A stretch of 64,000 bases of DNA from Clostridia bacterium (GCA_017464805.1 JAFTYE010000003.1:10259-74258); one strand, 5' to 3'; numbered from the stretch's first letter, positions 8,484 to 63,267 are shown. Numbers and translations: made by a program. Notes: generated by a model from the sequence alone, not told the origin.

Positions 8484-8560
8484 TGGTGGAGACAACTGGA
8501 CTCGAACCAGTGACCCCTTGCATGTCAAGCAAGTACTCTAACCAACTGAGCTATGCCTCC
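8484..8560 (-). tRNA. tRNA-Val (anticodon GAC)
   Basis: The minus strand reads GGAGGCATAGCTCAGTTGGTTAGAGTACTTGCTTGACATGCAAGGGGTCACTGGTTCGAGTCCAGTTGTCTCCACCA. It has cloverleaf arms, the anticodon loop ttGACat, a GTTCGAGTC T-loop and an encoded CCA. Confidence 0.9.
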
Positions 8561-29049: not shown

Positions 29050-29302
29050 GAATGTCCTCCTGTTTTCAAAATTTGTCCTTTTCCAAAAATGATACAGGCA
29101 CGCCTCTATTATACTCTCCGCCCTTGTAAAAATCAAGGGATTTTGTCATATTTTTTCGGCACTTCTACAAAAGTGAGAGTGGGAAATTCTACAAATCCAA
29201 GGGGTGAGAGTTACATTTGTAGAGTTGCGTGACAGGAGAAGTCCTTTGCTTTGCCTTGTATTTTTGGTATAGTAAGGTCAAAAGGTCGAAAGGGGAAAGA
29301 AC

Positions 29303-30097
29303 ATGCCGAACGCCCAAAGAATCGTGTATTACGACGACGAGCGCACCGACGAATTTTCGGGTATTTCTCGAAAAACCGTCACCGTGGACGAAAAATTCCC
29401 CTATCTGCGCCGCAGCCTTCTTTTCCGCTTTGCTGCTTTTTTCGCCTACCGCGTGATCATGAAGCCCTTTGCATTTCTTTATTGCAAGCTTCGCTTTGGT
29501 CTGCGAGCCAAGGGCGCGGACGCGCTCCGCTCGTTCCGCAAGAAGGGCTATTACCTGTACGCCAACCATACCCTGATGGCGGGGGACGCTTTTATCCCCA
29601 ACCTGCTGGATTTTCCCCAAAAAACCTACATCGTGGTGCATCCCGATAATATCTCTCTGCCCGTGGCTGGGACATTCGTTACGATGTGCGGTGCCATTCC
29701 CACCCCCACGACTCTGCACGCACACAAGCCGTTCCGAGAAGCGCTGTCCACTCGCATTTCGGAGGGGGCGTGTGTCGTGATTTACCCCGAGGCGCATATC
29801 TGGCCGTACTGCACGCGTATTCGAGAATTTTCCGACGTTTCCTTTGCGTACCCGGTTCGAGACGGCGCCCCCGTTTTTTCTGCCACCGTTACCTATGGGA
29901 AGGGGCGCATCGGCAAGATGCCGCGCGTGACCGTGTACGTGGACGGACCGTTCTATCCCGACACGTCACTTCCCCCGAAACAGGCGCGCGCCCGTCTGCG
30001 AGACGAGGTGCATGCCGCCATGTCTGCCCGAGCCGCGGAGCACAGCACCTACGAAAGAATTCGCTACGTCCAAAGAGAGGAGAAAACCCATGAGTGA
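29303..30097 (+). CDS. lysophospholipid (PlsC-like) acyltransferase family protein
   Basis: ANHTLMAGDAF (NHx..D-type block) and VIYPEAHIW (FPEG-like block). Confidence 0.65.
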   Translation: MPNAQRIVYYDDERTDEFSGISRKTVTVDEKFPYLRRSLLFRFAAFFAYRVIMKPFAFLYCKLRFGLRAKGADALRSFRKKGYYLYANHTLMAGDAFIPNLLDFPQKTYIVVHPDNISLPVAGTFVTMCGAIPTPTTLHAHKPFREALSTRISEGACVVIYPEAHIWPYCTRIREFSDVSFAYPVRDGAPVFSATVTYGKGRIGKMPRVTVYVDGPFYPDTSLPPKQARARLRDEVHAAMSARAAEHSTYERIRYVQREEKTHE

Positions 30098-30932
30098 GCC
30101 GATCTCGGTGGTATATGCCGGAAACGAGGGCATTTTCGACGGCATTCTGATCTCGCTTTCCTCGCTCGTAGAGCACACGCCCCACCCCATACACGCCTAT
30201 GTTCTGACCATGGATCTTTCCGAGCAGAATGAGAGATTCACCCCCGTCACCGAGCACCAGCGAGCTTTTTTGGAAGAGGTGGTGCAAGAGAAACATGGGG
30301 AAAGCCGCGTGACCCTCTTGGATGTCGGTTCGCTTTACCGAAAAACCCTGTACCATTCCCCGAACGCAAAAAGCGCGTACACGCCCTACGCCATGCTTCG
30401 CCTGCTTCTTGATCGACTGCCCGTGCCGAATAAATTACTGTATCTCGATGCGGACACCTTGGTCACGGCCGACGTGACCCCCTTGTGGGAGGAGGACGTG
30501 ACGGCATACGAATTTGCCGCCGTGCTCGACTATTACGGCAAAATTTTCATGGGCTACCACTACATCAATACGGGCGTTATGCTCCTCAATCTCGACAATA
30601 TCCGAAAAACAAACCTCTTTGCGCGGTGCATCGACCGCTTATGCCGTCGCCGCATCTTTTTACCCGACCAGACTGCCCTCAATCGGCTTGTCAAACGCAA
30701 AAAGCTGCTCCCCGTGTGTTACAACGAACAAAAGCACGACCGTGACGGCACCGTGATCCGCCACTTTTCCAAGACCATCATCTGGCATCCGTTCTTTCCG
30801 TTCTTTTACACCAAAAACATCAAGCCCTGGCAGACCGAACGTGTAAGAACCGAGTTGACCGACCGCTATAACGACACCCTCGACCGTTACCTTCGCCTGA
30901 AGGAGCGAATTGAAAAGGAGATATCTGTATGA
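30090..30932 (+). CDS. glycosyltransferase family 8
   Basis: ATG 30090 follows a GAGGAGA RBS and overlaps the upstream stop by 8 nt. It has the YLDADTLV DxD motif and a YINTGVMLLNL block. Confidence 0.8.
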   Translation: MSEPISVVYAGNEGIFDGILISLSSLVEHTPHPIHAYVLTMDLSEQNERFTPVTEHQRAFLEEVVQEKHGESRVTLLDVGSLYRKTLYHSPNAKSAYTPYAMLRLLLDRLPVPNKLLYLDADTLVTADVTPLWEEDVTAYEFAAVLDYYGKIFMGYHYINTGVMLLNLDNIRKTNLFARCIDRLCRRRIFLPDQTALNRLVKRKKLLPVCYNEQKHDRDGTVIRHFSKTIIWHPFFPFFYTKNIKPWQTERVRTELTDRYNDTLDRYLRLKERIEKEISV

Positions 30933-31867
30933 CCGAGACCGTGATTCCCGTCTTTTTCTCTGCGGACGACCGCTATATCCCCTATTGCGCCGTTGCTGTT
31001 TCCTCGCTGATTGAGGGGGCAGACCCCGCTTACACCTATCACATCCACATCCTGAACACGGGCATCGAAAAGGAGAGTGCGGCGCGCGTGCGGCAGATGG
31101 AGAGGGAAAACGTCCGCATCTTTTTCGACGACGTGACCGAAGGCATGAAGCGCATCGCCGGCCGCATGGACCTGCGGGACTACTATTCCGCGTCCATCTA
31201 CTTCCGCATCTTCATTCCCGCCCTGTTCCCGCAGTATGATAAAGGCATTTACCTTGATTCCGACGTGGTCGTTTCGGGGGATATCGCTCGCCTGTTTGAG
31301 GCCTCCCTTGACGGCAACCTCGTCGGCGCGGTGCCCGACGAGGTCATCGCGTCGTGCAAGGAATTTATCCGCTATGCCGAGCGCGGTTGTGGTATTCCTC
31401 ACGGCGAATATTTTAATTCGGGTGTGCTACTGATGGATCTTGCCGCTCTGCGGGATTTTGACCTGGAGGAGAGATATATCGACCTGCTCGTCCGCTACCG
31501 CTTTGACACCGTTTGCCCCGATCAGGATTACCTCAACGTCCTTTGTCGCGGCAGGGTGCGCCTTCTCGACAGGGGCTGGAATAAAATGTCCGTCTCCCGT
31601 GACTATGACGGTCTGCCGCGTCTGGTGCATTACAACATGTTCAACAAGCCCTGGCAGTACGACGGGATCCCCTACGGTGAGCTGTTCTGGAAGCACGCCG
31701 CCCGCTCTCCCTTTTATTCCGAGATTTGTGCGGTGAGAGACCGCTTTTCCGAGGCAGAGGCCGAGGTCCACCGCAAGGGACTTTCCGAGCTTGTGCGTCG
31801 CGCTACCGAAATCGCCGACAGCGAGCGCAACTTCCGCACCGTCCTGTTTGAGGGGGTAACAGTATGA
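30929..31867 (+). CDS. glycosyltransferase family 8
   Basis: IYLDSDVVV DxD motif, YFNSGVLLMDL and PDQDYLN blocks; ATGA overlap with the upstream gene. Confidence 0.85.
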   Translation: MTETVIPVFFSADDRYIPYCAVAVSSLIEGADPAYTYHIHILNTGIEKESAARVRQMERENVRIFFDDVTEGMKRIAGRMDLRDYYSASIYFRIFIPALFPQYDKGIYLDSDVVVSGDIARLFEASLDGNLVGAVPDEVIASCKEFIRYAERGCGIPHGEYFNSGVLLMDLAALRDFDLEERYIDLLVRYRFDTVCPDQDYLNVLCRGRVRLLDRGWNKMSVSRDYDGLPRLVHYNMFNKPWQYDGIPYGELFWKHAARSPFYSEICAVRDRFSEAEAEVHRKGLSELVRRATEIADSERNFRTVLFEGVTV

Positions 31868-32685
31868 GGAGCAAAAAAACCGTTCCCCAAGCCCTCGATC
31901 GGCTTGCGGTGCTGGAACGCATCCGCGCCTATGAGGTCGAGGGTGGGGAAGCCTTCTTCCGCAACGTCGAGGAGGATCCGCCCACCCGTCCGATTCTGCC
32001 GCACGAGGTGGATTATCTGTGCGAAAAGCCGTCTACCCGCGTAAGAACCGCCCTTGCCTCTCTGATCGAGGGCGTTGCGGGCGGCATTCTGTCCCGCACT
32101 CACGAGATCACCGTGATCGGGGAAGAGTATATCGCCGCCGTATCGGGCGGCATGATCCTGACCAGCAACCATTTTGCCAAGGACGAGAGCCTTTGCGTGC
32201 GTCTTGCCGTCCGTCGTGCGGGCAGACAACATCTCTACAAGGTGGTGCGCGAGGGCAACTTCTTTATGACCGGCATTATCGGCTTTCTTCTGCGCTACTG
32301 CCGTACCCTGCCCCTATCGTCCAATCTACACACCATGCAAAAGCTCGATCGCGCGCTCGGCACGCTCCTTTCGCGTGGCGAATGCGTGCTCGTTTACCCC
32401 GAGCAAGCCATGTGGTGGAACTACAAAAAGCCCCGTGAGTACCGTATCGGTGCCTACCATTGGGCAGCCAAGTACGGTGTGCCCGTGGTACCCTGCTTTG
32501 TCACGCTTTCGCCCATCGAAGGAAAGATCGGGGGCGACGGCTTTCCCGTCATGCGGTATACGGTGCACGTCATGCCCCCCCTGTATCCCGATCCCGCCGC
32601 CACCGTGCGCGAGAATGCGGAGCGCATGCGCGCCGAGAATAAACGCCTTTGCCTTGCCAAGTACCAAGAGGTCTACGGCCAATAA
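31864..32685 (+). CDS. lysophospholipid (PlsC-like) acyltransferase family protein
   Basis: LTSNHFAKDES and VLVYPEQAMWWNY blocks; ATGA overlap with the upstream GT8 gene. Confidence 0.65.
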   Translation: MRSKKTVPQALDRLAVLERIRAYEVEGGEAFFRNVEEDPPTRPILPHEVDYLCEKPSTRVRTALASLIEGVAGGILSRTHEITVIGEEYIAAVSGGMILTSNHFAKDESLCVRLAVRRAGRQHLYKVVREGNFFMTGIIGFLLRYCRTLPLSSNLHTMQKLDRALGTLLSRGECVLVYPEQAMWWNYKKPREYRIGAYHWAAKYGVPVVPCFVTLSPIEGKIGGDGFPVMRYTVHVMPPLYPDPAATVRENAERMRAENKRLCLAKYQEVYGQ

Positions 32686-36672: not shown

Positions 36673-36701
36673 TTGACAACCTGCATCCGTCGTGATAAAA
36701 T
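36673..36701 (+). promoter_or_regulatory. cassette 1 promoter, extended -10 (TTGACA-17-TGaTAAAAT)
   Basis: TTGACAacctgcatccgtcgTGaTAAAAT, 55 nt before the L1 start. TTGCACAAAA lies 35 nt upstream of the -35. Confidence 0.65.
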
Positions 36702-39932: not shown

Positions 39933-39955
39933 GCGGTTGAAAGGAGAATAGCAGC

Positions 39956-40117
39956 ATGAAATACGAAAATCCCGAAATGAAATGGCTTCTTTCCACCGAT
40001 GATGCCATCATGGAATCCGTAGAGCAGCCGCCCGTCGACATTCCCGAGGAGGATATGAAAGACTTCACCGAGGAGAATAAAAATGTCCTCGATAAAGGCT
40101 GGGTAAGCCTGTTCTGA
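39956..40117 (+). CDS. 53-aa acidic peptide s1 (below ORF-track cutoff), cognate to L1
   Basis: A GAAAGGAGA RBS is present and the gene starts 23 nt after the L1 stop. The product is MKYENPEMKWLLSTDDAIMESVEQPPVDIPEEDMKDFTEENKNVLDKGWVSLF. It is 48/53 identical to s2 and a terminator follows. Confidence 0.7.
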   Translation: MKYENPEMKWLLSTDDAIMESVEQPPVDIPEEDMKDFTEENKNVLDKGWVSLF

Positions 40118-40131
40118 TCATTCCCGAAACC

Positions 40132-40166
40132 AAAGCCCCCCGACGCATCGCGTTGGGGGGCTTTTT
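40132..40166 (+). terminator. intrinsic terminator of cassette 1
   Basis: aaaGCCCCCCGACGcatcgCGTTGGGGGGCttttt. Confidence 0.8.
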
Positions 40167-40528
40167 GCATCTTCGAACATGCACGCGCCCGAGATCCTTC
40201 GCCGCACTTTGCTGTCGCAGGGCGGCTCTGGGATGACACGGGCGGAAGCAGACCGTCGAAGGAGTCCCCCGCAACAAAGGTGTTCTGCTTCGCTGTATGG
40301 CATCTTGGCATGAGACGGCGCCCTCGACGTCCCGTGAAAGGCAGAAAAGCACCGCGCGGGTTGTCGAGGAGCACGCAGACCATCTGTCCCGCTTGCAAAA
40401 TGAAATAGGGAAAAGAGAAGTCCGCAAAAAGCCCGCAAAGGCTTCATTTTTTTGCAAAACGGCCGAATTAAAACAAAAAATAGACAAATTGCACAAAAAG
40501 AGGACTAAAAAATGTACATAGTGCCGAA

Positions 40529-40557
40529 TTGACAAATTGTCCAATTCGTGATACAAT
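40529..40557 (+). promoter_or_regulatory. cassette 2 promoter, extended -10 (TTGACA-17-TGaTACAAT)
   Basis: TTGACAaattgtccaattcgTGaTACAAT, 57 nt before the L2 start. TTGCACAAAA lies 34 nt upstream of the -35. Confidence 0.65.
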
Positions 40558-40613
40558 AGTAGAAGAATTCCTGTATTCTTTTTTTGGAAATATACACAAG
40601 GAGAAAAAACACC

Positions 40614-43600
40614 ATGAGCAAAAAACTTCTATCTCTCTTTCTCGCTGCTGTGATGCTGGTGCTGGCGATCCCCGTTGCGGTGTTGCCGACGTTCGCTACC
40701 GCGGCTGCGACCGCAACCGCAGAAGGCTTCACCACGACCTTCTCGGATGCCGAGGACATAGTCCCCGAGAATGCCAACAAGGCAGATTACACCACGGGTA
40801 CGATCATCGAGTTTCCCGCAGGCTGGGAGATCGGTGCCATGTCCGCCGCAACTTGGAATGAAAGCTACCACATCACCAACGTCTCCATGAACAACGGTGA
40901 GTGCTTCCACGGCGGCGGCGGCTGGATGGAGGGCGCCAGCGGCGGCGGCTTCTATTTCGGTAGCGGTCAGCTGGTTGCGGCCATCCGTTATATCAACGAG
41001 ACCGAGGATCTCAATGGTGACGGCGCACAGAATGCCGACGACCGTACCTTCGGCCAGTTGGATGCCAACATCATGATCCGTTACACCGCTCCCTACTTCG
41101 GTATCGTCTCCGTTGACGTGACCAAGCTGAATTTCAACAACACCTGGAACGCCATGTTTGCCATCCTGCTGAATGGCGAGCCTGTCGGTCAGTTTGACAC
41201 CGCTGATTTTGATTATGCAAGCGGTGAGGGCTGGTTCAAGCCTACGGACGTTGACTCCACCGATGCGATTGACTCCATCGTAAGTCTGGATGTCAAGAAG
41301 GGCGACAAAATCGACTTCGTCTTCCGTGGCACAGGCGTGGATTCCACTAGCGTCGCAGACTTCAACTACAACAACTGTAAGCGTCTTGCCAACGACTGGG
41401 GTTTCTCGGTTGAGTACGAGGCAGGTTATGCTCTCGTGGAGGATATGGATGCTTGGGCAAACGAGCAGACTGCCGACGTGATTGTCAATAACACCGCCGG
41501 TATCTACTTCTTCGCTTGGTTTGACGGCGATGTGCAGAAAACAAGCGGTTCTTTGTCCGACGACGCCGTTTTGAAGATCAACCCCTATCTGGTTGACAAC
41601 GGTGTCGTATCCGCTACCGATACGGTAGAGCAGGCGTTCGACAAGTGGGTCGCTTACATGAAGGATACCACCAAGATCACCTATAATAGCAACTGGTCGA
41701 TGGGCTCTATCAACGGTAGCACATATCTGCCCATTCTGTACCACGGCTTCCTGTCCGATCGCTCTGCCTTCCATCTGGACGGCACCGCGGGCGCTTATAC
41801 GTTCAGTGGCTGGGACAACCAGTACTGGATCCCCGAGGCAGGCGTGGACGCACAGTTCAACAAAATGTATTCCCTGATCACCGGGGTCATTGCTGCAGAC
41901 ACGGTCGTGTCTACCATCGAAATGAATCCTACCGATGCGATGTCTCGCGCCTCCGGTAATAAGATCACTCCCTCCACCTCCACCGGCTACGGACACGCCG
42001 GTAGCAAAAGTGGCGGTCGTACCAATCCCTTCTGGGGTCGTTCCGTCGGAAACAAGGGCGGCGTTAACATAGCGTACACCTGGACGGCTCCTACCGCAGG
42101 CTATGCAAAGTTTGAGATCGGCAGCATTCAGTATCAGGATAATGCTCCCGTTGATTTCGCCGTGATGCTCAACGGCTCGACCCAGCTCGGCTACGTGACG
42201 GTTGATCTGTCCGAGGCAGATGCGCTGGATCAGCTCAACGCCCTGCTGGCAGACTTTGAGGCTCCCGTATTCCAGGGCGATCAGGTCTCGCTGGTGTTTG
42301 CCCGTGTGAACGGCAACGCTGCCCGTGTCAACCTCACCGCCAAGGCGAACCTTGACACCTCCCGCATTCCTCCCGTATACGAGGCAGAGAACACCTGGAC
42401 GGGCGACTCCGCTTCTGCCACCGTTGCCAAAAACACGACCGATGGTATGTATCTGTTCCATTGGTACCGTAACGGCGAGCGGGTGGCTAATGGTGCCGAG
42501 TTGGCAAGCGGTGATGTTTTAAAGGTTAACCCCTACCTGATCGAGAACGGCATCGTCGCCGCAACCGACACCTATAAGGTAGCATTTGATAAGTGGATTG
42601 CCTACGTCAAGGAGACCTTCCACATCTCCTATAATAACAACTGGTCTATGGGTGCGATGAGCCCTGCCGGCATTTACGAGCCCATTCTGTATCCCGGCTT
42701 CACCTCCTATTGCTCGCTTCTGAATGTCACTGAAAGCGGCCAGGTCGGCGGTTGGGATAGCCAGTTCATGGTAACCGCGTCCTCCTTTGAAGCGATGACC
42801 AACGACACCTATAAGCGTTCGCTTGACTTTGTGAAGGCAAACGCGCTTGTTTCCGATATTGCCATCGGCTACAAGGCTGAAATGCACTACAAGGCTCTGG
42901 CCTCCACCAGCTCCGGCTGGGCCACCGGCGGTAACAGCAACGCATGGAATGATCCCTTCTGGACCCGTCCGACCAACAATGTTGGCTCCGGTAGCTACGG
43001 TGCATACGCTTGGACCGCTCCCGTGTCCGGTGTGGCCACCTTCAAGGTCAACGGCATCAACTTCAGAGAGGGCTCTGCCGGTGTGATGCCCTACGCCATC
43101 ATGCTCAACGGCGTGATCGTCCGGGATTGGACCAACTTCAACATCACCAGCTCCTCGGCACTCTCGGACATCAATGCACAGATCGGCACGGTTGAATTCC
43201 CCGTGCAGGCAGGCGATCAGGTTGCCATCGTGACCGCCCGTTACAACGGCAGCGCGACCCGTCTGGATCTCGACATCGCCGTTTCCATGGATACCACCCG
43301 TGTTCCCGTCGTGTACAAGAAGGGTGACACCGTGCTGGCGACCTACGTGGTCGAAAGAGGCGAGGCTCTGCCCCAGCTGACCGGCGTGTCCGATTTCGGT
43401 ACGGTCGGCTATCTTGTAAACGGCAAGTTCGAAAAGACCCTTCCCGAAACCGTTGAGGACGGCCTGCTTATCGAGGACTATGCTATCGAGACCTCCGTCA
43501 GCGTGACCATCAACAACCGCTACGTCATCAACGTATACGTGCAGGCCGATGAGGACGCTACCGGTGCCGGTATCATCGTAAACGGTCGTTTCATGTACGG

Positions 43601-44525
43601 CATCAAGCAGGAGGACGGCTCCTACAAGGTAGCTGCCCGGGTTTTGGCAGCCAGCCAGCTCCAGACCGCATCCTTGACCTTCAAGGCATTCCAGACCTAC
43701 GAGGACGGTTACCGCATCAGCGCGGCAGAGACCACCGTTACTTCCATCGGTCTGTTTGAAGCCTACGTTAACGGTGACTACGATGCCACCACCAAGGCGC
43801 TTGCCTCCGGTGTTCTGGACTTCGCAGAGGCACTGCGCGCTTATATGACCGGCATTGACCTGAATGCTACCGTCAAAAACCACCTCAAGGGCACCTACAC
43901 CATCTCCGGCAACTACCTCAGCGGTAAGCACGATGTTTACCTCGGCACGTTGAAGCAGATCACCACTGGTGAGGAGGCGAAGTACATCGCCAACTTCAAG
44001 GATGCCGTGTTCGCTCCCGATCCCACCGTTACCGAGGCTGACAAGGTGAAGATGGGCTTTGAGGAAGGTGTGGATCCGACCTCCGACGAATACAAGTACG
44101 CCATCCAGGCCGTTACGTTGAACCTCGAAGATCAGATCGGCTTTGCTTTCCGCGTTGTGGGCAACGGCGACAATGCTGTTGCTGACCTGCGTCCCGATGG
44201 CGTGTATGCACTGCGTGCAGACTCCGGCGTTGGTGACTATTCCTACTACGATGCTTTCCTGTATGATGGCGATGACAAATCTGCCAAGGCAATCGTTGTA
44301 GACGGTCTCCCCGCATCCCGTTACGATCTGGATCAGAACTTCACGATTGTAGAGAAGCAGGCAGACGGCAGCTACGTTGAGGTCAGTGCGACCCTGACGT
44401 ACAGCGTTAAGGCTTACGCGGTTACCACCTTTACCTTCGGCAAGGCAGACTATGCAAGCTATCTGGCGCAGGCCCTGTTCCGTCTGGGCGTACTGGCTGA
44501 CGAGTATGTAGCCGCACACGCATAA
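40614..44525 (+). CDS. large secreted repeat protein L2 (1303 aa), unknown family
   Basis: ATG 40614 follows an AAGGAGAAAAA RBS. The signal peptide is MSKKLLSLFLAAVMLVLAIPVAVLPTFA. An N-terminal module is related to the L3 N-terminus, followed by two roughly 330-aa modules and a C-terminal 407 aa paralogous to L1. Confidence 0.85.
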   Translation: MSKKLLSLFLAAVMLVLAIPVAVLPTFATAAATATAEGFTTTFSDAEDIVPENANKADYTTGTIIEFPAGWEIGAMSAATWNESYHITNVSMNNGECFHGGGGWMEGASGGGFYFGSGQLVAAIRYINETEDLNGDGAQNADDRTFGQLDANIMIRYTAPYFGIVSVDVTKLNFNNTWNAMFAILLNGEPVGQFDTADFDYASGEGWFKPTDVDSTDAIDSIVSLDVKKGDKIDFVFRGTGVDSTSVADFNYNNCKRLANDWGFSVEYEAGYALVEDMDAWANEQTADVIVNNTAGIYFFAWFDGDVQKTSGSLSDDAVLKINPYLVDNGVVSATDTVEQAFDKWVAYMKDTTKITYNSNWSMGSINGSTYLPILYHGFLSDRSAFHLDGTAGAYTFSGWDNQYWIPEAGVDAQFNKMYSLITGVIAADTVVSTIEMNPTDAMSRASGNKITPSTSTGYGHAGSKSGGRTNPFWGRSVGNKGGVNIAYTWTAPTAGYAKFEIGSIQYQDNAPVDFAVMLNGSTQLGYVTVDLSEADALDQLNALLADFEAPVFQGDQVSLVFARVNGNAARVNLTAKANLDTSRIPPVYEAENTWTGDSASATVAKNTTDGMYLFHWYRNGERVANGAELASGDVLKVNPYLIENGIVAATDTYKVAFDKWIAYVKETFHISYNNNWSMGAMSPAGIYEPILYPGFTSYCSLLNVTESGQVGGWDSQFMVTASSFEAMTNDTYKRSLDFVKANALVSDIAIGYKAEMHYKALASTSSGWATGGNSNAWNDPFWTRPTNNVGSGSYGAYAWTAPVSGVATFKVNGINFREGSAGVMPYAIMLNGVIVRDWTNFNITSSSALSDINAQIGTVEFPVQAGDQVAIVTARYNGSATRLDLDIAVSMDTTRVPVVYKKGDTVLATYVVERGEALPQLTGVSDFGTVGYLVNGKFEKTLPETVEDGLLIEDYAIETSVSVTINNRYVINVYVQADEDATGAGIIVNGRFMYGIKQEDGSYKVAARVLAASQLQTASLTFKAFQTYEDGYRISAAETTVTSIGLFEAYVNGDYDATTKALASGVLDFAEALRAYMTGIDLNATVKNHLKGTYTISGNYLSGKHDVYLGTLKQITTGEEAKYIANFKDAVFAPDPTVTEADKVKMGFEEGVDPTSDEYKYAIQAVTLNLEDQIGFAFRVVGNGDNAVADLRPDGVYALRADSGVGDYSYYDAFLYDGDDKSAKAIVVDGLPASRYDLDQNFTIVEKQADGSYVEVSATLTYSVKAYAVTTFTFGKADYASYLAQALFRLGVLADEYVAAHA

Positions 44526-44553
44526 GCCGAACGGTTGAAAGGAGACCCTACGC

Positions 44554-44715
44554 ATGCAATACCAAACCCCCGAAATGACATGGCTTCTTTCTACCGATGA
44601 TGCCATCATGGAATCCGTAGAACAGCCGCCCGTCGACATTCCCGAGGAGGATATGAAAGACTTCGCTGAGGAGAATAAAAACGTCCTCGATAAAGGCTGG
44701 GTAAGCCTGTTCTGA
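44554..44715 (+). CDS. 53-aa acidic peptide s2 (below ORF-track cutoff), cognate to L2
   Basis: A GAAAGGAGA RBS is present and the gene starts 28 nt after the L2 stop. The product is MQYQTPEMTWLLSTDDAIMESVEQPPVDIPEEDMKDFAEENKNVLDKGWVSLF, and a terminator follows. Confidence 0.7.
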   Translation: MQYQTPEMTWLLSTDDAIMESVEQPPVDIPEEDMKDFAEENKNVLDKGWVSLF

Positions 44716-44731
44716 TCATTCCCCAAAACCC

Positions 44732-44766
44732 AAACACCCCGACGCGATGCGTCGGGGTGTTTTTTC
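44732..44766 (+). terminator. intrinsic terminator of cassette 2
   Basis: aaACACCCCGACGCgatGCGTCGGGGTGTtttttt. Confidence 0.8.
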
Positions 44767-44775
44767 ATGCAGCTC

Positions 44776-44804
44776 TTGCAATTTTCGGGAAAAAGCCGTA
44801 TAAT
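44776..44804 (+). promoter_or_regulatory. sigma-70-type promoter (TTGCAA-17-TATAAT) of the LysR gene
   Basis: TTGCAAttttcgggaaaaagccgTATAAT, 35 nt upstream of ATG 44840. Confidence 0.6.
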
Positions 44805-44839
44805 ATAAAAAGTGATAGATTCCGACAAAGGAGCAGGCT

Positions 44840-45682
44840 ATGGAGCTGTTGCAGTTAAAATACCTTTGCACCGCCGCGCGGTTTGAAAATTTTTCCCGTG
44901 CCGCGAAATTTCATAACATCCCGCAGTCCGCGATCTCCAAAACCATCGCCCAACTGGAGCGGGAGCTCGGCACGCAGCTTTTCACGCGGAACGGCAATCG
45001 TGTCACCCTAAACGAGCGCGGCAAGCTGTTTTGCCGTGAGGTCAGCCGCGCGCTCGGCATCCTGGGTGACGCCGCACAGGCCGTCAAGGAAACGGTCTCC
45101 CTGCACGGCGAGGTACGACTTCTGGTGCAGGAGCATCTATATGAGGTGCTTTCGGTCATTTCGGAGTTCAAAAAGGAATACCCCGACGTGTCGGTGTCGG
45201 TGGTGACCGAGCCGCGTGAGGGCTTTGCGGACGACCTCCGCATCTGCTCTGCCTCGGCGGCGGGAGATCGTCTCGGCTTTGAAAAGCTGCATGACGCGCG
45301 CGTGTCCCTTCTTTTGCCCTTGCATCACCCCCTCGCGGGGGAGCGCATTCAGGCGGCATCTCTTGCGGGACAGCGGCAGATCCTGTTTACCCGCGATACC
45401 ACCTGCGCCCGTGTGGCGCGGGAGCGGCTTGCACAGGCAGGCGTGACGTTGGAGACGGCCATGTCCTGCGATGACCGCAGCAGCCTGCTTTCCTGCGTGG
45501 CATCGGGGCTTGGCGTGGCGTTTACCTCGGACATCTCGGAACGGGAGGCCGAGGATGCCGGCGTTGCCGTTTGCCGCTTGCAGGAGGATTGGCGGTACGC
45601 CACCTGTCTTTCTTACCGCCGTGCCCTTTCCCCGGCAGGGGAGGCACTGCGCGCGCTGATCCTTATTCGCTTGGGGATGTAG
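44840..45682 (+). CDS. LysR family transcriptional regulator
   Basis: N-terminal winged HTH MELLQLKYLCTAARFENFSRAAKFHNIPQSAISKTIAQLERELGTQLFTR followed by a substrate-binding domain; 280 aa. Confidence 0.9.
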   Translation: MELLQLKYLCTAARFENFSRAAKFHNIPQSAISKTIAQLERELGTQLFTRNGNRVTLNERGKLFCREVSRALGILGDAAQAVKETVSLHGEVRLLVQEHLYEVLSVISEFKKEYPDVSVSVVTEPREGFADDLRICSASAAGDRLGFEKLHDARVSLLLPLHHPLAGERIQAASLAGQRQILFTRDTTCARVARERLAQAGVTLETAMSCDDRSSLLSCVASGLGVAFTSDISEREAEDAGVAVCRLQEDWRYATCLSYRRALSPAGEALRALILIRLGM

Positions 45683-45736
45683 CATAATTCCGAAAAAAGG
45701 TTATACTGTTAGAAAACCGAACAAGGGGGACACGTC

Positions 45737-46663
45737 GTGTCAGACCTACGCTTACAAACCATTTTACAGGAAACAGAGGCCGACCTCGCCGCCTGCGTGG
45801 CGCGCGCGGAGCAGGCCTATCATGAAAGGCTCCGTTCCGTGGCAGAAGCCCTGCTGTCCGACCGAAAAAAAGTCGTTTTGCTGGCAGGGCCCAGCGGCTC
45901 GGGCAAAACTACCACCGCAGGCTTTCTCGCCGCCCTTTTGTCGGCGGCGGGGCATCACGCCGCTGTGGTGTCGCTTGACGATTTTTACCGCAATCCCGAG
46001 GAAGCGGGATACCCGCGCACAGGAAACGGTGAGCTGGATTTTGAGGCCGTGGATGCCCTCGCCGTGGACGAAATACACGAGTGCATCGACGCGGTGCTCG
46101 CGGGTAGAGAATTCCTCTTGCCCCGCTTTGATTTCAAGCGCGGCCGCCGCGCGCCCGAGCGCGTGCCGCTCCTCGTCCCCGAGGGTGGCTATGTCATCAT
46201 TGAAGGGCTTCATGCCCTCAACCCCCGCCTGACCGAGGGCATTGACGGCGCGGGACTTTTCCGTTTGTTTATCAGCGTGTCCACCAATGTCCTGGACAAG
46301 GCGGGCGATCGCCTTCTTTCGGGGCGGCGTATCCGCTTCTTGCGCCGCGTCAGCCGCGATCACCTGCACCGCAACGCAAGTGCCGCCCGCACCTACGAGC
46401 TCTGGCTCGGAGTGGTAGCGGGTGAGGAAAAATATCTTTACCCCTTCCGCAATACCGCAGATGTTCAGCTCGACACCTTCCACCCCTACGAGGTGGGGGT
46501 CTTGCGCGCCTTTTGCGATCCCTTGCTCGCCGCGTCCGACGCGCCGAAGAACCCCTACGTGGACGAGATCCGACGCGGCCTGGCGCATTTTCCCATCATC
46601 CACGCATCCTGTGTGCCAAGCGACTCGCTTCTTTGTGAATTTATCCCCAATCCAACCGTATGA
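45737..46663 (+). CDS. uridine kinase/phosphoribulokinase-family nucleoside kinase-like protein
   Basis: GTG start after an AAGGGGGA RBS; P-loop LLAGPSGSGKTTTA; VSLDDFY block. Confidence 0.7.
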   Translation: MSDLRLQTILQETEADLAACVARAEQAYHERLRSVAEALLSDRKKVVLLAGPSGSGKTTTAGFLAALLSAAGHHAAVVSLDDFYRNPEEAGYPRTGNGELDFEAVDALAVDEIHECIDAVLAGREFLLPRFDFKRGRRAPERVPLLVPEGGYVIIEGLHALNPRLTEGIDGAGLFRLFISVSTNVLDKAGDRLLSGRRIRFLRRVSRDHLHRNASAARTYELWLGVVAGEEKYLYPFRNTADVQLDTFHPYEVGVLRAFCDPLLAASDAPKNPYVDEIRRGLAHFPIIHASCVPSDSLLCEFIPNPTV

Positions 46664-46712
46664 CGCACGCGCACGCGCGCATAATAAATAATAAAAAGGT
46701 AGGTACACTCCC

Positions 46713-48143
46713 ATGAAGCGCGCAAGCGGCGTCCTTCTTCCCGCATTTTCTCTGCCGGGCGATTATTCGGTCGGCTCTTTCGGGCGAGAGGCGAAAAAAT
46801 TCGTTGATTTTCTGTATGAGGGTGGCTTCTCGTGGTGGCAGGTGCTTCCGTTTTGCTTGCCCGGGGCAGGGAATTCTCCCTACAAATCCTACTCTGCCTT
46901 CAGCTATAACTACGCCTTTGTGGACCTGCCTACTCTTTACGACGAGGGGCTTTTGACCCGAGCGGAGCTGGAGGGCGCGCGCGGACGCGGCCCCTACGTG
47001 TGCGAATACGACCGTATGGAGAACGAACGCTTTGCGCTCCTCTCTCGTGCTGCCGCCCGCTTCACCGACCGTGCCGCCGTATACGATTTTTTGCAAAAAA
47101 ACCCCGCAACCGAGCAGTTCTGCCGCTTTATGGCCCTGCGCCGTGCAAACGATGACCGCCCGTGGCGGGAATTTGTGACCGACCGCTTTGACGAAAGCTA
47201 CTACTACGCCTGGGCCTTTACTCAGTATGCCTTCTGCCGCCAATTTGACGAACTGCACCGCTATGCCGCCGCACGCGGTGTCCGCATCATGGGCGACATT
47301 CCCATCTATGTGGACTACGAAAGTGCGGACGTGTACGAAAGCCGTCACCTGTTCCTTTTGCGGCAGGACAACACCCCTGCCGCCGTGGCGGGCGTACCAC
47401 CCGATTATTTCTGCGAGGACGGTCAGCTGTGGGGAAACCCCTTGTACGATTGGGAGGCCATGCAGGCGGAAAATTATGCCTGGTGGCGAGGCCGCCTACG
47501 GCATACGCTGTCGCTGTTTGATGGCGTTCGCATCGACCATTTCCGCGCGTTTGCGTCCTATTTCAGTATTCCCGCAGGTGCCGAAACGGCCAAGGAGGGA
47601 AGCTGGAAGGTCGGCCCGGGCGAGGAGCTTGTTGACCGTCTGCGCGAGGTAGCGGGAGATGCCCTGATCGTGGCGGAGGATCTGGGCGGCGAGTCGTCCG
47701 ACGTGCGAAAGCTCCTTTCGTACAGCGGCTTCCCCGGGATGCGTGTTCTGCAATTCGCCTTCCTCGGTGACATGGAGAGCCTGCACCTGCCGCATCATTA
47801 TCCGCACAATTCGGTCGCCTATACGGGCACGCATGATAATGATACGCTCCTTGGGTACCTTTTTTCGATGCCCGAGGAACGTCGCCGCCACGTATTCCGC
47901 TATTGCGGCTATAACGGCGAGGATATGCATAGCGGCTTCACGGCCGTTCTGCGTACCATGTACGCCTCGCATGCGGGATTGCTCGTTCTGCCGGTACAGG
48001 ATCTGTTGCGCTTTGGCGAGGACACGCGCATCAACCGTCCCGGTACGCCGTCGGGCAACTGGGGCTATCGTCTGACCGAGGAGCAGCTTGGCAGCCTTGA
48101 CCCTGCGCCTTTCCGAACCCTGTCCAATCTGTACGGACGATGA
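46713..48143 (+). CDS. malQ: 4-alpha-glucanotransferase (amylomaltase, GH77)
   Basis: 476 aa with SGVLLPAFSLPG, VRIMGDIPIYV, RIDHFRAF, IVAEDLG and YTGTHDNDT GH77 blocks. Confidence 0.92.
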   Translation: MKRASGVLLPAFSLPGDYSVGSFGREAKKFVDFLYEGGFSWWQVLPFCLPGAGNSPYKSYSAFSYNYAFVDLPTLYDEGLLTRAELEGARGRGPYVCEYDRMENERFALLSRAAARFTDRAAVYDFLQKNPATEQFCRFMALRRANDDRPWREFVTDRFDESYYYAWAFTQYAFCRQFDELHRYAAARGVRIMGDIPIYVDYESADVYESRHLFLLRQDNTPAAVAGVPPDYFCEDGQLWGNPLYDWEAMQAENYAWWRGRLRHTLSLFDGVRIDHFRAFASYFSIPAGAETAKEGSWKVGPGEELVDRLREVAGDALIVAEDLGGESSDVRKLLSYSGFPGMRVLQFAFLGDMESLHLPHHYPHNSVAYTGTHDNDTLLGYLFSMPEERRRHVFRYCGYNGEDMHSGFTAVLRTMYASHAGLLVLPVQDLLRFGEDTRINRPGTPSGNWGYRLTEEQLGSLDPAPFRTLSNLYGR

Positions 48144-48144
48144 A

Positions 48145-48178
48145 ACAAAAAAGAGAGAGCATCGCTCTCTCTTTTTTT
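48145..48178. terminator. bidirectional intrinsic terminator
   Basis: aaaaaAGAGAGAGCatcGCTCTCTCTttttttt between convergent malQ and s4. Confidence 0.8.
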
Positions 48179-48193
48179 GCGTTTTTGTTGGTA

Positions 48194-48484
48194 TTAGCCC
48201 ATCTGCATGGGAGGCAGCTCAATATTGGTGTTGCCGCCCCAGGAGCCGCCGTTGAGAAGGCCGCCCGAGCTCTCCTCATCCGATTCCATGAGGATGTCCG
48301 TTGGCATATCCTCCACGGATAAGGCAGGGGGAGCGTAGCTCTCGGATGCATTCATGGGAATGGGCGGAAGCTCGATCGCGCCGCTACCGCTTCCACCGCC
48401 TCCCGGCGTTTCGGAGGACAGCATCAGAATGTCCTCGGCATTCGTATAAAAGATCATGTTCGGCATGGTGTATCGGTTCTGCAT
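48194..48484 (-). CDS. 96-aa acidic protein s4, stand-alone member of the s1-s3 peptide family
   Basis: An AAGAGGA RBS lies 7 nt before ATG 48484. MQNRYTMPNMIFYTNAEDILMLSSE aligns with the s1-s3 N-termini. The track ORF extends to 48574 but that stretch is the promoter and leader. Confidence 0.55.
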   Translation of the reverse strand: MQNRYTMPNMIFYTNAEDILMLSSETPGGGGSGSGAIELPPIPMNASESYAPPALSVEDMPTDILMESDEESSGGLLNGGSWGGNTNIELPPMQMG

Positions 48485-48545
48485 GAAGAAGTCCTCTTTT
48501 CGTATCATGGCCGCTCCGCCTGTACGGCGAGCCCGAATTTCCTTT

Positions 48546-48574
48546 ATTATACCATGTCTTTCGCCTCTTGTCAA
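48546..48574 (-). promoter_or_regulatory. s4 promoter, extended -10 (TTGACA-17-TGgTATAAT)
   Basis: The minus strand reads TTGACAagaggcgaaagacaTGgTATAAT. TTGCACAAAA (48630..48621, minus strand) lies 50 nt upstream. Confidence 0.6.
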
Positions 48575-48692
48575 CCGTCATGCCGCGTTGCGCCCTCTGT
48601 TTTTTATAAGAATGGGAAAATTTTGTGCAACCTGAACAAAAAACGGACGCTATTTTTGGCAGTTGGATTTTGGGTTGAAAGGCAATATTTTA

Positions 48693-48721
48693 TTGACAAA
48701 ACAAAATAATTGTGTTATTAT
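48693..48721 (+). promoter_or_regulatory. cassette 3 promoter, extended -10 (TTGACA-17-TGtTATTAT)
   Basis: TTGACAaaacaaaataattgTGtTATTAT, 60 nt before the L3 start. A TTGCACAAAC copy sits in the 5' UTR (48747..48756). Confidence 0.6.
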
Positions 48722-48781
48722 ATATATGTGTAAAAGTCTGTGTTACTTGCACAAACAAACAACCATCGAAAGGAAAACAAC

Positions 48782-51196
48782 ATGAAACAGCGTATTTTGA
48801 GCTTTGTTTTGGCAGTTTGCATGATCGCCGTGGCTATCCCGGTCATTGCGCTTCCCGCAGTGGCTGCCGAGGGCCGTGAGGGCTTCACGACTTCCTTGGA
48901 AGTCGGTGGCGAGAACTGGCCTGTTGCTGTGACCGATGACGGCACGAACTACTATCCGGAATATCAGAACGGATGGAGTGTCGGTAAATATGAGTACGGC
49001 AAGTACTATGAGTTTAACAGCATCAGAAACGAGGGTGTCAAGCCCGCATATTTGACCTATAACCTGTTGATGTGGAACGCAAACGGTCCTTTCCTGTACA
49101 TCAGCGACGGTCGCGGCACCTTGCTGGGTGAGTCCGCCAACAATTGGGATGGCGGTACCGGCCCCGGTGCATACTATGCAGAGAAGAACAACTCGGGTAC
49201 CCCCGCAAACGGTCAGGCGTTCGTCTATACATACACCGCTCCCTACGAGGGCGTGGTTGACATCAGCGTCAAGGACCTGGTCATCTCGAACATGGGTGCG
49301 GGTACCACCGAGCCGCCTGCTCCCGAGCTTCCCGAATACTACAAGGCTTACTTCTCCATCTACGTCAATGACGTGATGGTATGGCCTACCGAGGGCGGTT
49401 CTATCACCGATCCTGATGATTGGGCTATCGTCCCCGAGATGGTAGACGGTGAGAAGGTTACCGAGGTTGTAGCCGATGCACTCAAAAACATTGAGGTTGC
49501 CGTTGGCGATACTATCCGCTTCGCAGCTGCCCGTTACAACTGCCGTGTTGCGAAGTACACCCCTATCATTACATATCACGACGATTATAACGTCGCTCCG
49601 GAGAGGAAGACCGAAACCTTTAGTAATGCCGATATCACCTGGCCCGTCAGCCGTAACACCAACGGTGTGTCCGTGCTGAAGCAGAAGGATGCCGACTGGA
49701 TCCTCGGTCAGTTCGATTCTGCAACCAAAACCTTCGTTTCCTTCGCTAACCAGAAGCGTGAGGGCTCTGAAGTTTGGGTTTGCACCGGCAACGATCCCGA
49801 TATCCTGGGCAACAACGGTATTCTGATCAGCTCCGCCTTCGCCGAGAACATCGGTGCGTTCATGGTTGGTGCTGATGAGACCAATCTGAAGCCCGCTTAT
49901 CAGTACACCGCCATGGCTACCGGTACGGCAACCGTTGGCTTGGTAGACGGCTTCGTGCTGATCGACGAGAACTCCGAGGCTGCCGCGAACGCTTCCGCCA
50001 AGATCGCTTTCTATAAGAATAATGTTCTGCTCGGCGAGGTGACCATCACCACCGATGCAAACGGTGTTGCTACCGCTTCCGCAGCTCTTTCCGCCATTGA
50101 GGTGGTAAAGGGTGACAAGATTGCCTTTGTGGCAAGTGAGGTCAGCGGCGGTGCCGTACAGGTTGCGGCCGCGCCCGTTGTACAGTACACGGCCATCAAG
50201 TCCTTTGTCGGAATAGAAACCACCGAAAAGTACGTTTTGGCTATGGATGCTGCTTCCATCATCGTGGGCGATAAGATCGCTTTGAGTTTCTCCACCTACG
50301 GCACCCGCGACGTATATCAGGATGCCGATGAAGTGAAGCTCCGCATTTGGGACAACACCGTTGAGGGTGAGAAGACCAAGGATAATGTGGTAGCCGAGAT
50401 CGTCATGGAAGCTGATGTTATGGGTGACTACGCTTATACCTGTATTTATGAGGAGTTCGCTCCCAAGCAGATGACCGATACCGTTGCTGTACAGGCATAC
50501 ATGGTTATGGGTGATGCAGAGGTGAAGGCCTCCGAGATCCAGGAGGTCAGCCTGGCCGGTATCGCATTCGAGCAGTATGAAAAGGCTGTTGCCGCCCAAG
50601 AGCAGGAGCAGGCAAACCTGATGGTTGCCGTTCTGAACTACGGCGCAGCTGCCCAGAAGTACTTTGGCTACAAGGTAGATGACCTGGCGAACAAGAACCT
50701 TCCCACGGAGCTCCAGGTAGTGGAGCAGAAACCCGACGGCTATTACAGTGCCGCTATTATGGATTCCGTTGATCCCGATGCCGCTCTTTATGCGTATTCC
50801 GAGATCACGGCCGCATCCCTGGTATTCGAAAGCACCATTGGCATTCGTGTCTACGTTGACGTAGCACCCAGCGAGGCCGACAAGCCGATCTCTATGCGTT
50901 ATGGCCTGACCTCGGAGGAGCTGGCAGGCAAGGGCGAGAAGGTTGACGGAGCTTACTCCTTTACCATCTCGGGCATTGGTCTGACCGGTCTGAAGACGAC
51001 CCGTTACTTCCAGGCGGTTGTCGAGTATACCCGTAAGGTTGGTAACAAGGAGATCCCCGCATACTACAGCGGTAACTACTTCAGCTACAGCGTAGAAGCT
51101 TACGTTGCCAGAATGGCATACGAAACCGATAAGCCCGAGTTGGCGAACCTGTTGCATGCTCTGATGAACTTGAGCGATGCCGCCGCTGCTGTTTAA
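48782..51196 (+). CDS. large secreted repeat protein L3 (804 aa), unknown family
   Basis: ATG 48782 follows a GAAAGGAAAA RBS. The signal peptide is MKQRILSFVLAVCMIAVAIPVIALPAVA|AEG. It has two copies of the YxYTA...GDxIxF module shared with L1/L2 and a distinct C-terminal region. Confidence 0.85.
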   Translation: MKQRILSFVLAVCMIAVAIPVIALPAVAAEGREGFTTSLEVGGENWPVAVTDDGTNYYPEYQNGWSVGKYEYGKYYEFNSIRNEGVKPAYLTYNLLMWNANGPFLYISDGRGTLLGESANNWDGGTGPGAYYAEKNNSGTPANGQAFVYTYTAPYEGVVDISVKDLVISNMGAGTTEPPAPELPEYYKAYFSIYVNDVMVWPTEGGSITDPDDWAIVPEMVDGEKVTEVVADALKNIEVAVGDTIRFAAARYNCRVAKYTPIITYHDDYNVAPERKTETFSNADITWPVSRNTNGVSVLKQKDADWILGQFDSATKTFVSFANQKREGSEVWVCTGNDPDILGNNGILISSAFAENIGAFMVGADETNLKPAYQYTAMATGTATVGLVDGFVLIDENSEAAANASAKIAFYKNNVLLGEVTITTDANGVATASAALSAIEVVKGDKIAFVASEVSGGAVQVAAAPVVQYTAIKSFVGIETTEKYVLAMDAASIIVGDKIALSFSTYGTRDVYQDADEVKLRIWDNTVEGEKTKDNVVAEIVMEADVMGDYAYTCIYEEFAPKQMTDTVAVQAYMVMGDAEVKASEIQEVSLAGIAFEQYEKAVAAQEQEQANLMVAVLNYGAAAQKYFGYKVDDLANKNLPTELQVVEQKPDGYYSAAIMDSVDPDAALYAYSEITAASLVFESTIGIRVYVDVAPSEADKPISMRYGLTSEELAGKGEKVDGAYSFTISGIGLTGLKTTRYFQAVVEYTRKVGNKEIPAYYSGNYFSYSVEAYVARMAYETDKPELANLLHALMNLSDAAAAV

Positions 51197-51214
51197 GCAT
51201 AAGGAGGAACGAAC

Positions 51215-51361
51215 ATGAAGAAATACATCTCTCCTGACGTAGAGCTTCTGGCACTCTATGCAAAGGATGCCATCATGGCTTCCGGCGAGAAGGGTCCGAA
51301 CGAGACCGACCTCGACGAGTTCATGAACGATCTGACGATCGACGAAATCCAAACCATCTAA
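51215..51361 (+). CDS. 48-aa acidic peptide s3 (below ORF-track cutoff), cognate to L3
   Basis: A TAAGGAGGA RBS is present and the gene starts 18 nt after the L3 stop. The product is MKKYISPDVELLALYAKDAIMASGEKGPNETDLDEFMNDLTIDEIQTI, and a terminator follows. Confidence 0.65.
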   Translation: MKKYISPDVELLALYAKDAIMASGEKGPNETDLDEFMNDLTIDEIQTI

Positions 51362-51367
51362 AAAACC

Positions 51368-51397
51368 AAGGAGGGCTTTGCAAAAAGCCCTCCTTTT
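51368..51397 (+). terminator. intrinsic terminator of cassette 3
   Basis: AAGGAGGGCTTTgcaAAAGCCCTCCTTttt. Confidence 0.8.
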
Positions 51398-51440
51398 TCA
51401 TGCAAAGAGCCCCGCGCGTTGCGCGGGGCTCGGTTCATTT

Positions 51441-63093: not shown

Positions 63094-63267
63094 GAGAGCA
63101 TAAAGCCGAACAAATAAATGAGAAAATAGGCAGAATACACAAAAAAACACAAGCAGAATTGGAGAAATTGCCGATTGACCCAACCACTCGCTTTGTTATA
63201 TAATATATTCGTGTTAAAATATCATAGTGAAATTGCCGCATTCGCGGTGATGAAAAAGGAGAAAAGT

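Follow-up and report, generated by a model that had tools for sequence, protein, structure and literature searches.

Four small peptide genes and their transcription units

The DNA analyzed here is a stretch of 64,000 nucleotides from a Clostridia bacterium (GCA_017464805.1, JAFTYE010000003.1:10259-74258), hereafter the window, in which positions 39,956 to 51,361 harbor four small genes, s1 to s4, whose acidic products share a conserved N-terminal module, the head. s1 (39956-40117, plus strand) encodes an acidic peptide of 53 aa, with the head at 39956-40018 (Y3, P6, and S21), and s2 (44554-44715, plus strand; head at 44554-44616) encodes a second 53-aa peptide. The product of s3 (51215-51361, plus strand; head at 51215-51283, with Y4, P7, and S23) is an acidic peptide of 48 aa. 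On the minus strand, s4 (48194-48484) encodes 96 aa, organized as two tandem modules, when read from the start MQNRY; the product annotated at NCBI has 104 aa and begins at a Met upstream, placing MQNRY inside a longer open reading frame (ORF). The four peptides have an isoelectric point (pI) of approximately 4.05 and contain no Cys. A first-pass annotation of this DNA had reported four small acidic ORFs with a common N-terminal pattern, lacking both Cys and a hydrophobic signal sequence. All four are present as described there, and inspection of the sequences bore out both absences: the head is amphipathic and acidic and contains no run of 7 or more hydrophobic residues, in contrast to Sec or Tat signal peptides, in which a hydrophobic h-region follows a basic n-region.

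Three of the small genes are second cistrons. s1, s2, and s3 lie 19 to 29 nt behind the large genes L1, L2, and L3, respectively, in operons with the order promoter–L–s–terminator, and each L gene is preceded by a near-consensus promoter with an extended -10 element. The L1-s1 operon has the sigma70-type promoter TTGACA-17-TAAAAT (36673..36701, plus strand; 11/12, with the TG extension), the L2-s2 operon TTGACA-17-TACAAT (40529..40557, plus strand; 11/12 with TG), and the L3-s3 operon TTGACA-17-TATTAT (48693..48721, plus strand; 11/12 with TG). s4 is monocistronic and divergent from L3, and its own promoter, TTGACA-17-TATAAT (48546..48574, minus strand), is a perfect consensus (12/12 with TG). 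With promoter scores of 12/12 and 11/12, s4 and the L genes probably rank with the most highly transcribed genes of this region. An intrinsic terminator closely follows each small gene: at 40132..40167 (plus strand; GCCCCCC…GGGGGGC and then a T-run) for s1, at 44734..44765 (plus strand) for s2, at 51368..51398 for s3, and, for s4, as a bidirectional hairpin at 48147..48177 that is common to malQ (plus strand) and s4 (minus strand). Shine-Dalgarno sequences are strong for s1 to s3 (GAAAGGAGA, AAGGAGGA) and weaker for s4 (AAAAGAGGA); the ribosome-binding site of s1 is GAAAGGAGA, 23 nt past the L1 stop. Read-through or frameshifting from L into s was ruled out, given that the L1/s1 and L2/s2 frames differ and each s gene has a ribosome-binding site of its own. 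Scans against Pfam-A and NCBIfam gave no match for s1, s3, or s4 at E<=1, a sequence search of the PDB with the head profile gave none, and an Rfam scan detected nothing at the peptide genes.

L1 (36756..39932, plus strand) encodes a 1058-aa signal-peptide protein with multiple beta-sandwiches. L2 (40614..44525, plus strand) encodes a 1303-aa paralogue with 47% identity to L1 over ~1000 aa, and L3 (48779..51196, plus strand) an 805-aa signal-peptide protein that resembles L2 only over the N-terminal ~170 aa and L1 only over the first ~70-85 aa. The L proteins match no Pfam or NCBIfam family. The L1 family is rare, with only 11 homologous clusters among 5.8e9 proteins, and among GTDB species genomes it occurs in a single metagenome-assembled genome. 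The AlphaFold2 (AF2) model of L1 (mean predicted local distance difference test [pLDDT] of 72) is a string of beta-sandwiches, for which Foldseek matched only adhesin, carbohydrate-binding (CBM), and Ig-like modules. The densest invariant columns of the L family fall in the C-terminal ~260 aa (L1 residues ~796-1058), and AF2 assigns much of this region a pLDDT of 31-60 but is confident about the beta-sandwiches, which are less conserved. This part of L1 may have a new fold or may depend on a partner for folding.

The shared module, its conservation, and its distant relatives

The head is a 22-residue N-terminal module, M-(K)-K-Y-x-x-P-x-h-x-h-h…[DE]-D-h-h-M-x-S (h, hydrophobic; x, any residue), common to s1 to s4. 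Invariant in it are Met1, the Tyr, a Pro at Tyr+3, an Asp, a Met, and a Ser, the last being at Tyr+18 in s1, s2, and both s4 modules and at Tyr+19 in s3. The element YxxPx[V/M/L] occurs at residues 3-10 of all four peptides and again in s4 at aa 50-55. Profile comparisons by hhalign aligned the families head-to-head and in register, with P=6e-8 for the s1 family against the s3 family, P=1e-4 for s1 against s4, and P=2e-3 for s3 against s4; by this sequence measure, the similarity among the heads exceeds chance. A regular expression and a local hidden Markov model (HMM) of the head, run over six frames of the window and ~40 kb of flanking DNA, recovered only these four copies. The initial description had counted four ORFs; since s1 and s2 are near-identical paralogues (91% identity), these represent three independent families.

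The tails had been called unrelated and very acidic, and the peptides had been summarized as a conserved head with a variable tail. The acidity holds, but within each orthologous family the tails are conserved end to end (the 48-aa s3 family included), and a second, weak motif follows the Ser in all families (IPEEDM, LDEFM, or IELPPIPM). A head-plus-variable-tail scheme is also too simple for s4, which repeats the head internally (aa 50-68). Module 1 (48338-48484, minus strand) and module 2 (48194-48337, minus strand) of s4 each run from YxxPxh…D-h-L-M-x-S through a Gly-rich stretch to IELPPxPM, and comparison of the N- and C-terminal halves (hhalign, P=1.2e-13) identifies them as a tandem duplication of the complete module. 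Because s4 consists of two complete modules, the head is best described as part of a ~50-aa module that is not strictly N-terminal. L018, the syntenic genome that has diverged furthest, encodes the two s4 modules in separate genes (10001-10180 and 10246-10416, for 59 and 56 aa) with a terminator-like hairpin between them, so a gene fusion or fission has occurred in this peptide family. s1 to s4 thus form one family with a basic unit of ~45-55 aa, in which s4 consists of two fused units. AlphaFold2, given an 11-sequence alignment, predicted s4 to be fully disordered (pLDDT of 58, predicted template modeling score of 0.12).

Orthologues were found, in identical gene order, in at least five other metagenome-assembled relatives; known relatives include GCA_045632565.1 and GCA_965334785.1. 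Using the Nei-Gojobori method on orthologues from five other genomes, the ratio of nonsynonymous to synonymous substitutions (dN/dS) was ~0.05 for the s1 type, 0.08-0.14 for s3, and 0.3 for s4. As these low ratios come with dS values of up to ~2, conservation acts at the protein level, and from their sequences s1 to s4 are genuine, translated-looking genes under purifying selection. The tandem duplication that produced L1-s1 and L2-s2 is best conserved over the small ORFs, as it is in the relatives. Between s1 and s2 (39937-40116 against 44535-44715), 57-59 of every 60 nt are identical, compared with 35-57 of 60, mostly 40-50, in the adjacent 3' ends of the L genes. In one relative (L014), the two s copies have a dS of 0.03, while the L proteins differ greatly in length (1048 and 1310 aa). 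The near-identity of s1 and s2 suggests either gene conversion or homogenization, or a very strong constraint on s.

Word-indexed homology searches with the peptides and an exhaustive HMM search of 1.84e9 representatives returned only the narrow lineage of the window and three distant members (for example, MKKKYLTPEMEIFEIYAEDVIMTSSEEIETGGEGGWEGDLP), these three coming from the HMM search. Two eukaryotic matches (P0033 and P0036) were inspected and rejected as spurious. A metagenome scan with head-derived patterns gave ten loci; representative peptides are MKKYETPEMELLEIEAEDIMTASGKPGEIEGDLGED (L021), MEKKYTTPEMEITEFEAEDVITTSGGANGNNEYEHGGSVID (L028), MKKYLTPEIEIAEVKTSDIITSSPGVETPWYEESDGIWDFSINP (L027), and MKKYMTPEMELVDLEIRQILCASGKTGDDEAIIPGQLDDDDEP (L022). 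Two scans of viral contigs yielded one locus (L031) and then none, and tblastn of the distant members against plasmid and phage collections found no match. These metagenome relatives are 35-60 aa long and keep the head while their tails differ; all are acidic except that of L020 (pI of 8.1). The Ser lies at Tyr+18 or Tyr+19 in eight of nine tabulated distant members and at Tyr+20 in L024. Eight distant members had no Pfam or NCBIfam match at E<=10, apart from chance-level ones in two (E>=0.07, ~11-12 bits).

At all nine informative loci (L020 is uninformative), a long ORF on the same strand ends 10-95 nt before the peptide gene, and a terminator comes after it; with L019, a close relative of the window lineage, set aside, the nine loci represent approximately four independent groups. 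Where the upstream ORF is complete, it encodes a signal-peptide protein of 1097-1570 aa from a family quite different from L, with InlB B-repeat and F5/8-type-C domains in the L021 group and MBG in L022. All-against-all BLASTP ruled out a common C-terminal domain among the large upstream proteins. L031 is an exception to this arrangement, having no large protein upstream and, as neighbors, a MarR regulator and two MsbA-like ABC exporters. On the downstream side, the L028 peptide gene is followed by a terminator, a gene for an 87-aa PqqD protein (PF05402, 53.8 bits, E=2.6e-14), and an NTP_transf_5 gene (E=1e-43), the latter found only here among the relatives. In L021, L023, and L025, the peptide gene and its terminator precede the gene for a 163-aa soluble protein similar to signal peptidase I of the archaeal type (SpI-like), which carries the catalytic motifs RGTSM and LHR, like S29 and H68 of LppS, a protein discussed below.

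Two further features of these loci were observed. The gene directly after the SpI-like one (L021 6780-9261; also in L023 and L025) encodes a signal-peptide protein of ~830 aa that combines Big_2 repeats with a caspase-like Peptidase_C14 domain; this protein could be an additional processing enzyme or a further surface protein. Head-motif peptides are also encoded on low-GC contigs without Shine-Dalgarno sequences (L022 4259-4390, L024 1399-1512, and L020 158-295), and the C termini of the upstream proteins of L022 and L024 resemble sorting domains of the type IX secretion system (T9SS) (…GWYNLNG…KGVYI.NGKKVVVK), a resemblance that Pfam and NCBIfam did not confirm. The low-GC contigs and T9SS-like C termini suggest that the peptide family is not confined to Bacillota.

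A possible precursor-peptide role and its alternatives

The start of the head contains a known motif. [Y/W]xxPx[L/V/I/A/F] is the motif by which the leaders of lasso peptides, pyrroloquinoline quinone (PQQ), and linear polyphosphorylated peptides (LPPs) bind the PqqD-type recognition element (RRE) of pathways for ribosomally synthesized and posttranslationally modified peptides (RiPPs) (PMC13381572). LPPs were described in 2026 from Paenibacillus alginolyticus and other Bacillota (Nat Commun, PMC13381572). Their clusters are defined by LppS (a TIGR02228-type SpI-like protein), LppB (a discrete PqqD RRE), an HprK-like kinase, NTP_transf_5, and an MsbA-like exporter, and their precursors, one to three per cluster, have 35-200 aa with a conserved N terminus, YxxPxVLxHQxIxFETxxS, and highly variable C termini (PMC13381572). 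Y-16 and P-13 of the leader are needed for RRE binding, cleavage of the leader takes place after T-1, and polyphosphorylation falls on core residue Ser3 (PMC13381572). We reconstructed the precursor LppA from the primers in PMC13381572 as MEENTKREQKLYARPMVLSQQPVRFET followed by AQSWNK (the leader ends in …KLYARPMVLSQQPVRFET, ahead of the core residues AQS), which places the phospho-Ser 18 residues past the Tyr.

The first-pass annotation had compared s1 to s4 with RiPP precursors, and part of that comparison stands. Like LPP precursors, the window peptides are small, have a conserved N terminus and a variable C terminus, occur several per genome, and carry YxxPx[V/L] near the N terminus with a Ser 18 residues past the Tyr; like LPP genes, those of their relatives are adjacent to genes for PqqD and NTP_transf_5 or for a TIGR02228-type SpI-like protein. 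The predicted disorder of s4 is also as expected of a precursor peptide, and the strong purifying selection and the several paralogous genes per genome add support. The resemblance extends to Bacillota lasso leaders (PbaA of paeninodin and FusA), which share an N-terminal strand motif, MKK-[Y/W]-x-x-P-E-h-E-h-h, recognized by discrete PqqD-type RREs; the paeninodin-type leader MKKEWLKPELEVLDV (PMC13381572) much resembles MKKYETPEMELLEIE, and NTP_transf_5 is a tailoring gene in that system too. PqqA is likewise a short peptide with a WxxPxh-type N-terminal strand bound by PqqD, but the window peptides differ from it in size and composition and have neither the E-x3-Y core nor pqq genes. We therefore favor, with a probability of roughly 0.5, the reading that s1 to s4 are precursors of an LPP-like, RRE-dependent linear RiPP pathway whose enzymes would be encoded elsewhere in the genome; we call them orphan precursors because no pathway enzyme lies within 104 kb.

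Under this LPP-like reading, the first ~22 residues of the head would form a PqqD-type RRE-binding leader, K-Y-x-x-P-[ED]-h-x-h-h and then [DE]-D-h-h-M-x-S. A discrete PqqD protein would dock on YxxPxh as an added beta-strand and present the D-h-h-M-x-S region to an SpI-like leader peptidase, which would cut near there. The invariant Ser would be the modification site for Ser-directed tailoring enzymes, and an acidic, Gly/Pro-rich product would be released. Three of the precursors would be expressed from strongly promoted operons, as the 3' cistron behind a gene for a large secreted beta-sandwich protein, to which they may be linked.

Several observations weigh against an LPP-like pathway. In the window and 10 kb on either side (a total of 104 kb), Pfam tables and phmmer searches of six frames found no gene for a PqqD, an SpI-like protein, an NTP_transf_5, a kinase, or an exporter, in agreement with the earlier statement that neither a maturation enzyme nor a C39 peptidase nor an ABC exporter is encoded in the window. 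These five kinds of gene are likewise lacking at the syntenic loci of six relatives. Taken singly, a discrete PqqD-family RRE was not found in the window, its 10-kb flanks, or the syntenic loci; a TIGR02228-type SpI-like leader peptidase is absent from the window and flanks (phmmer); neither an HprK-like kinase nor an NTP_transf_5 tailoring gene is in the window; and by the Pfam tables the window and flanks encode no other RiPP enzyme, no C39 peptidase, and no ABC exporter. Beside the distant relatives, the loci retrieved, mostly on short contigs, contain no HprK-like kinase and, apart from L031, no MsbA-like exporter, and the SpI-like protein of the L021 group scores below the TIGR02228 cutoff (E=8e-11, 42 bits against 51.85). 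The head HMM does not score LppA above chance (-2.2 bits, with 154 of 300 shuffled sequences as good) or PbaA (0.7 bits, no better than shuffled controls); FusA is the only known leader above controls (8.1 bits, 0 of 300 shuffles as good). Because the head HMM fails on LppA, the link to LPPs is one of motif, spacing, and genomic context and not of homology. Against the LPP consensus, only Y, P, a hydrophobic residue at +5, and Ser at +18/+19 coincide; the consensus here is PE-h-E-h-h…[DE]D-h-h-x-x-S instead of VLxHQxIxFETxxS, and F-3, E-2, and T-1 have no counterpart in the window peptides. The internal repeat of the leader in s4 is unusual for RRE-dependent precursors, and the RiPP model does not explain it. 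The most consistent context of all, a large secreted protein gene immediately upstream, has not been described for LPP or lasso clusters; the model gives no reason for a last-cistron placement behind a huge secreted protein, and this placement suggests a different or additional role. The window peptides also differ from LPPs in being orphans, in being operonic with large secreted proteins, in having a member with two leader-plus-tail modules, and in their host, an uncultured Clostridia/Eubacteriales lineage, with non-Bacillota carriers possible as well.

The operon context is the starting point of the main rival explanation, according to which the peptides are dedicated, non-RiPP partners of the large secreted proteins encoded upstream, made stoichiometrically with L and binding it. 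The window has three instances of the arrangement promoter–L–s–terminator, which every syntenic relative shares, L and s duplicate as a unit, and the tail type of s tracks the type of L (s1/s2-type tails with L1 and L2, s3 with L3). The placement behind a long ORF also holds at nine of nine informative metagenome loci despite unrelated upstream families, and the most conserved part of L is the C-terminal region that AF2 models poorly. The peptide might act in the cytoplasm as a holdase or in the timing of export, might donate a strand or motif that completes the L C-terminal domain, or might be a coreleased ligand, and its conserved head would bind either a shared factor or a feature common to the L proteins. 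We nonetheless consider this unlikely as the sole explanation. With no domain detectably in common among the upstream proteins, it is difficult to envisage one docking site for the head; s4 is transcribed from a promoter of its own without an L gene before it, the L031 member has no large protein upstream, and none of the four neighboring paralogous lipoprotein genes at the right end of the window, taken as a control, has a head-motif peptide behind it. Moreover, the peptides have no signal peptide whereas L is Sec-exported, and the partner model does not account for the PqqD, NTP_transf_5, and SpI-like genes next to relatives. A wider proposal, which we hold only as a speculative one, is that the two-gene operon of a large secreted surface protein, an acidic peptide of the RRE-leader type, and a terminator, which recurs in unrelated gut or rumen anaerobes, is a functional unit, with the peptide working on or with the surface protein. 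In one version, trans-encoded LPP-like maturation would yield a phospho- or glycopeptide that serves, e.g., as a dedicated ligand or anchor, as a counter-ion, or in maturation; a second version would have the YxxP head repurposed as a docking signal without RiPP enzymes.

Three other explanations share parts of this evidence and appear less probable. Exported signaling propeptides of the quorum-sensing or pheromone kind, from which a housekeeping protease removes the head so that the acidic tail reports surface-protein expression, would fit the small size, the conserved head with family-specific tails, the cotranscription with highly expressed surface genes, and the presence of a LysR regulator inside the locus; this seems improbable, however, as no exporter, receptor (RRNPP or histidine kinase), or processing gene lies nearby. 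The peptides have no signal sequence and, at the end of the head, no double-glycine (GG) motif, their 25-30-residue, very acidic tails are unlike known Gram-positive pheromones, and LysR, PRK, and GH77 look like ordinary housekeeping neighbors. Very improbable, in our view, is that the peptides are lasso precursors, cleaved before the conserved Ser with Ser1 joined to an Asp or Glu at position 8. The YxxPxh leader does resemble those of PbaA and FusA (KKKYTAPQL), s1 has D8 and s3 E8 if the conserved Ser is core residue 1, and several distant relatives have a Thr two residues before the Ser. Still, the Pfam gene tables list no lasso cyclase (Asn-synthetase-like) or B2 cysteine protease family for the window or for the surroundings of any relative, positions 7-9 hold no acidic residue in the s4 modules or the L018 peptides, and with tails this acidic a D or E would often fall there by chance. 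At 26-33 aa the putative cores are long, the tails are much longer and more acidic than those of lasso peptides, a ring-forming Asp or Glu is not consistently present, and the window peptides have Met instead of Thr at -2. The least probable explanation casts the peptides as immunity or antitoxin proteins for large secreted toxins. As in polymorphic toxin-immunity pairs, a small gene lies directly 3' of a very large secreted protein gene, is co-duplicated with it, and has a tail type that covaries with L; yet L has no toxin domain (Pfam and NCBIfam give nothing, and the folds are only adhesin- or CBM-like sandwiches), the peptides are disordered and only 48-53 aa long, and the head is conserved across unrelated upstream proteins. 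A cytoplasmic immunity protein would also not be needed, because L is Sec-exported.

No curated model of the peptide family exists, and we found no paper mentioning it, including in searches with head sequence strings, nor a description in the literature of the pairing of L with s. Under the RiPP reading, three features appear to be undescribed: the dispersal of precursors as orphans, their coupling in operons with large secreted proteins, and a precursor with two modules. If the peptides are LPP-like precursors, the LPP family extends into uncultured Clostridia, its precursors can lie far from the enzymes and be missed by cluster-based genome mining, and the operon ties to very large secreted proteins provide a concrete hypothesis for the purpose of LPPs. 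Should the peptides not be RiPPs, a recognition motif of the lasso type would have found a new use. Either version of the two-gene unit, if true, would represent a role and a genomic logic not yet described for RRE-type peptides. Whether or not the peptides are RiPPs, two unannotated families, the L proteins and the peptides, gain a testable partner.

Neighboring genes and minor features of the window

The genes between and around the L–s units are housekeeping genes, encoding LysR, a PRK-type kinase, GH77, AlaX, Fur, PFK, UvrAB, and AddB, among others; the LysR regulator is at 44840-45682. The sole RNA gene detected in the window by Rfam is a tRNA-Val (GAC) at 8484-8560 on the minus strand. 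The lipoprotein genes mentioned above, from ~63175 to 64000 and beyond (L030 13445-22037), encode four tandem paralogous putative lipoproteins of 690, 665, 637, and 740 aa that are 41-77% identical; each has its own terminator, and they give no full-strength Pfam match and one faint SASA hit.

Between the s1 terminator and the L2 promoter lies a GC-rich spacer of ~300 nt (40170-40450), where the corresponding spacers of the relatives total ~230-250 nt. Its RNA structure is not significant (z of -1.6 and -1.3) and it has no Rfam match; gene callers place a 163-aa minus-strand ORF there. Approximately 4 kb upstream of L1, at 29302-32684, are two GT8 glycosyltransferase genes and two acyltransferase genes. 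LPP clusters have been reported to sit in polysaccharide loci, and this group of genes may or may not be relevant to the link with LPPs. It is flanked by genes for unannotated proteins of 558, 374, and ~316 aa and for an HTH_3 regulator.

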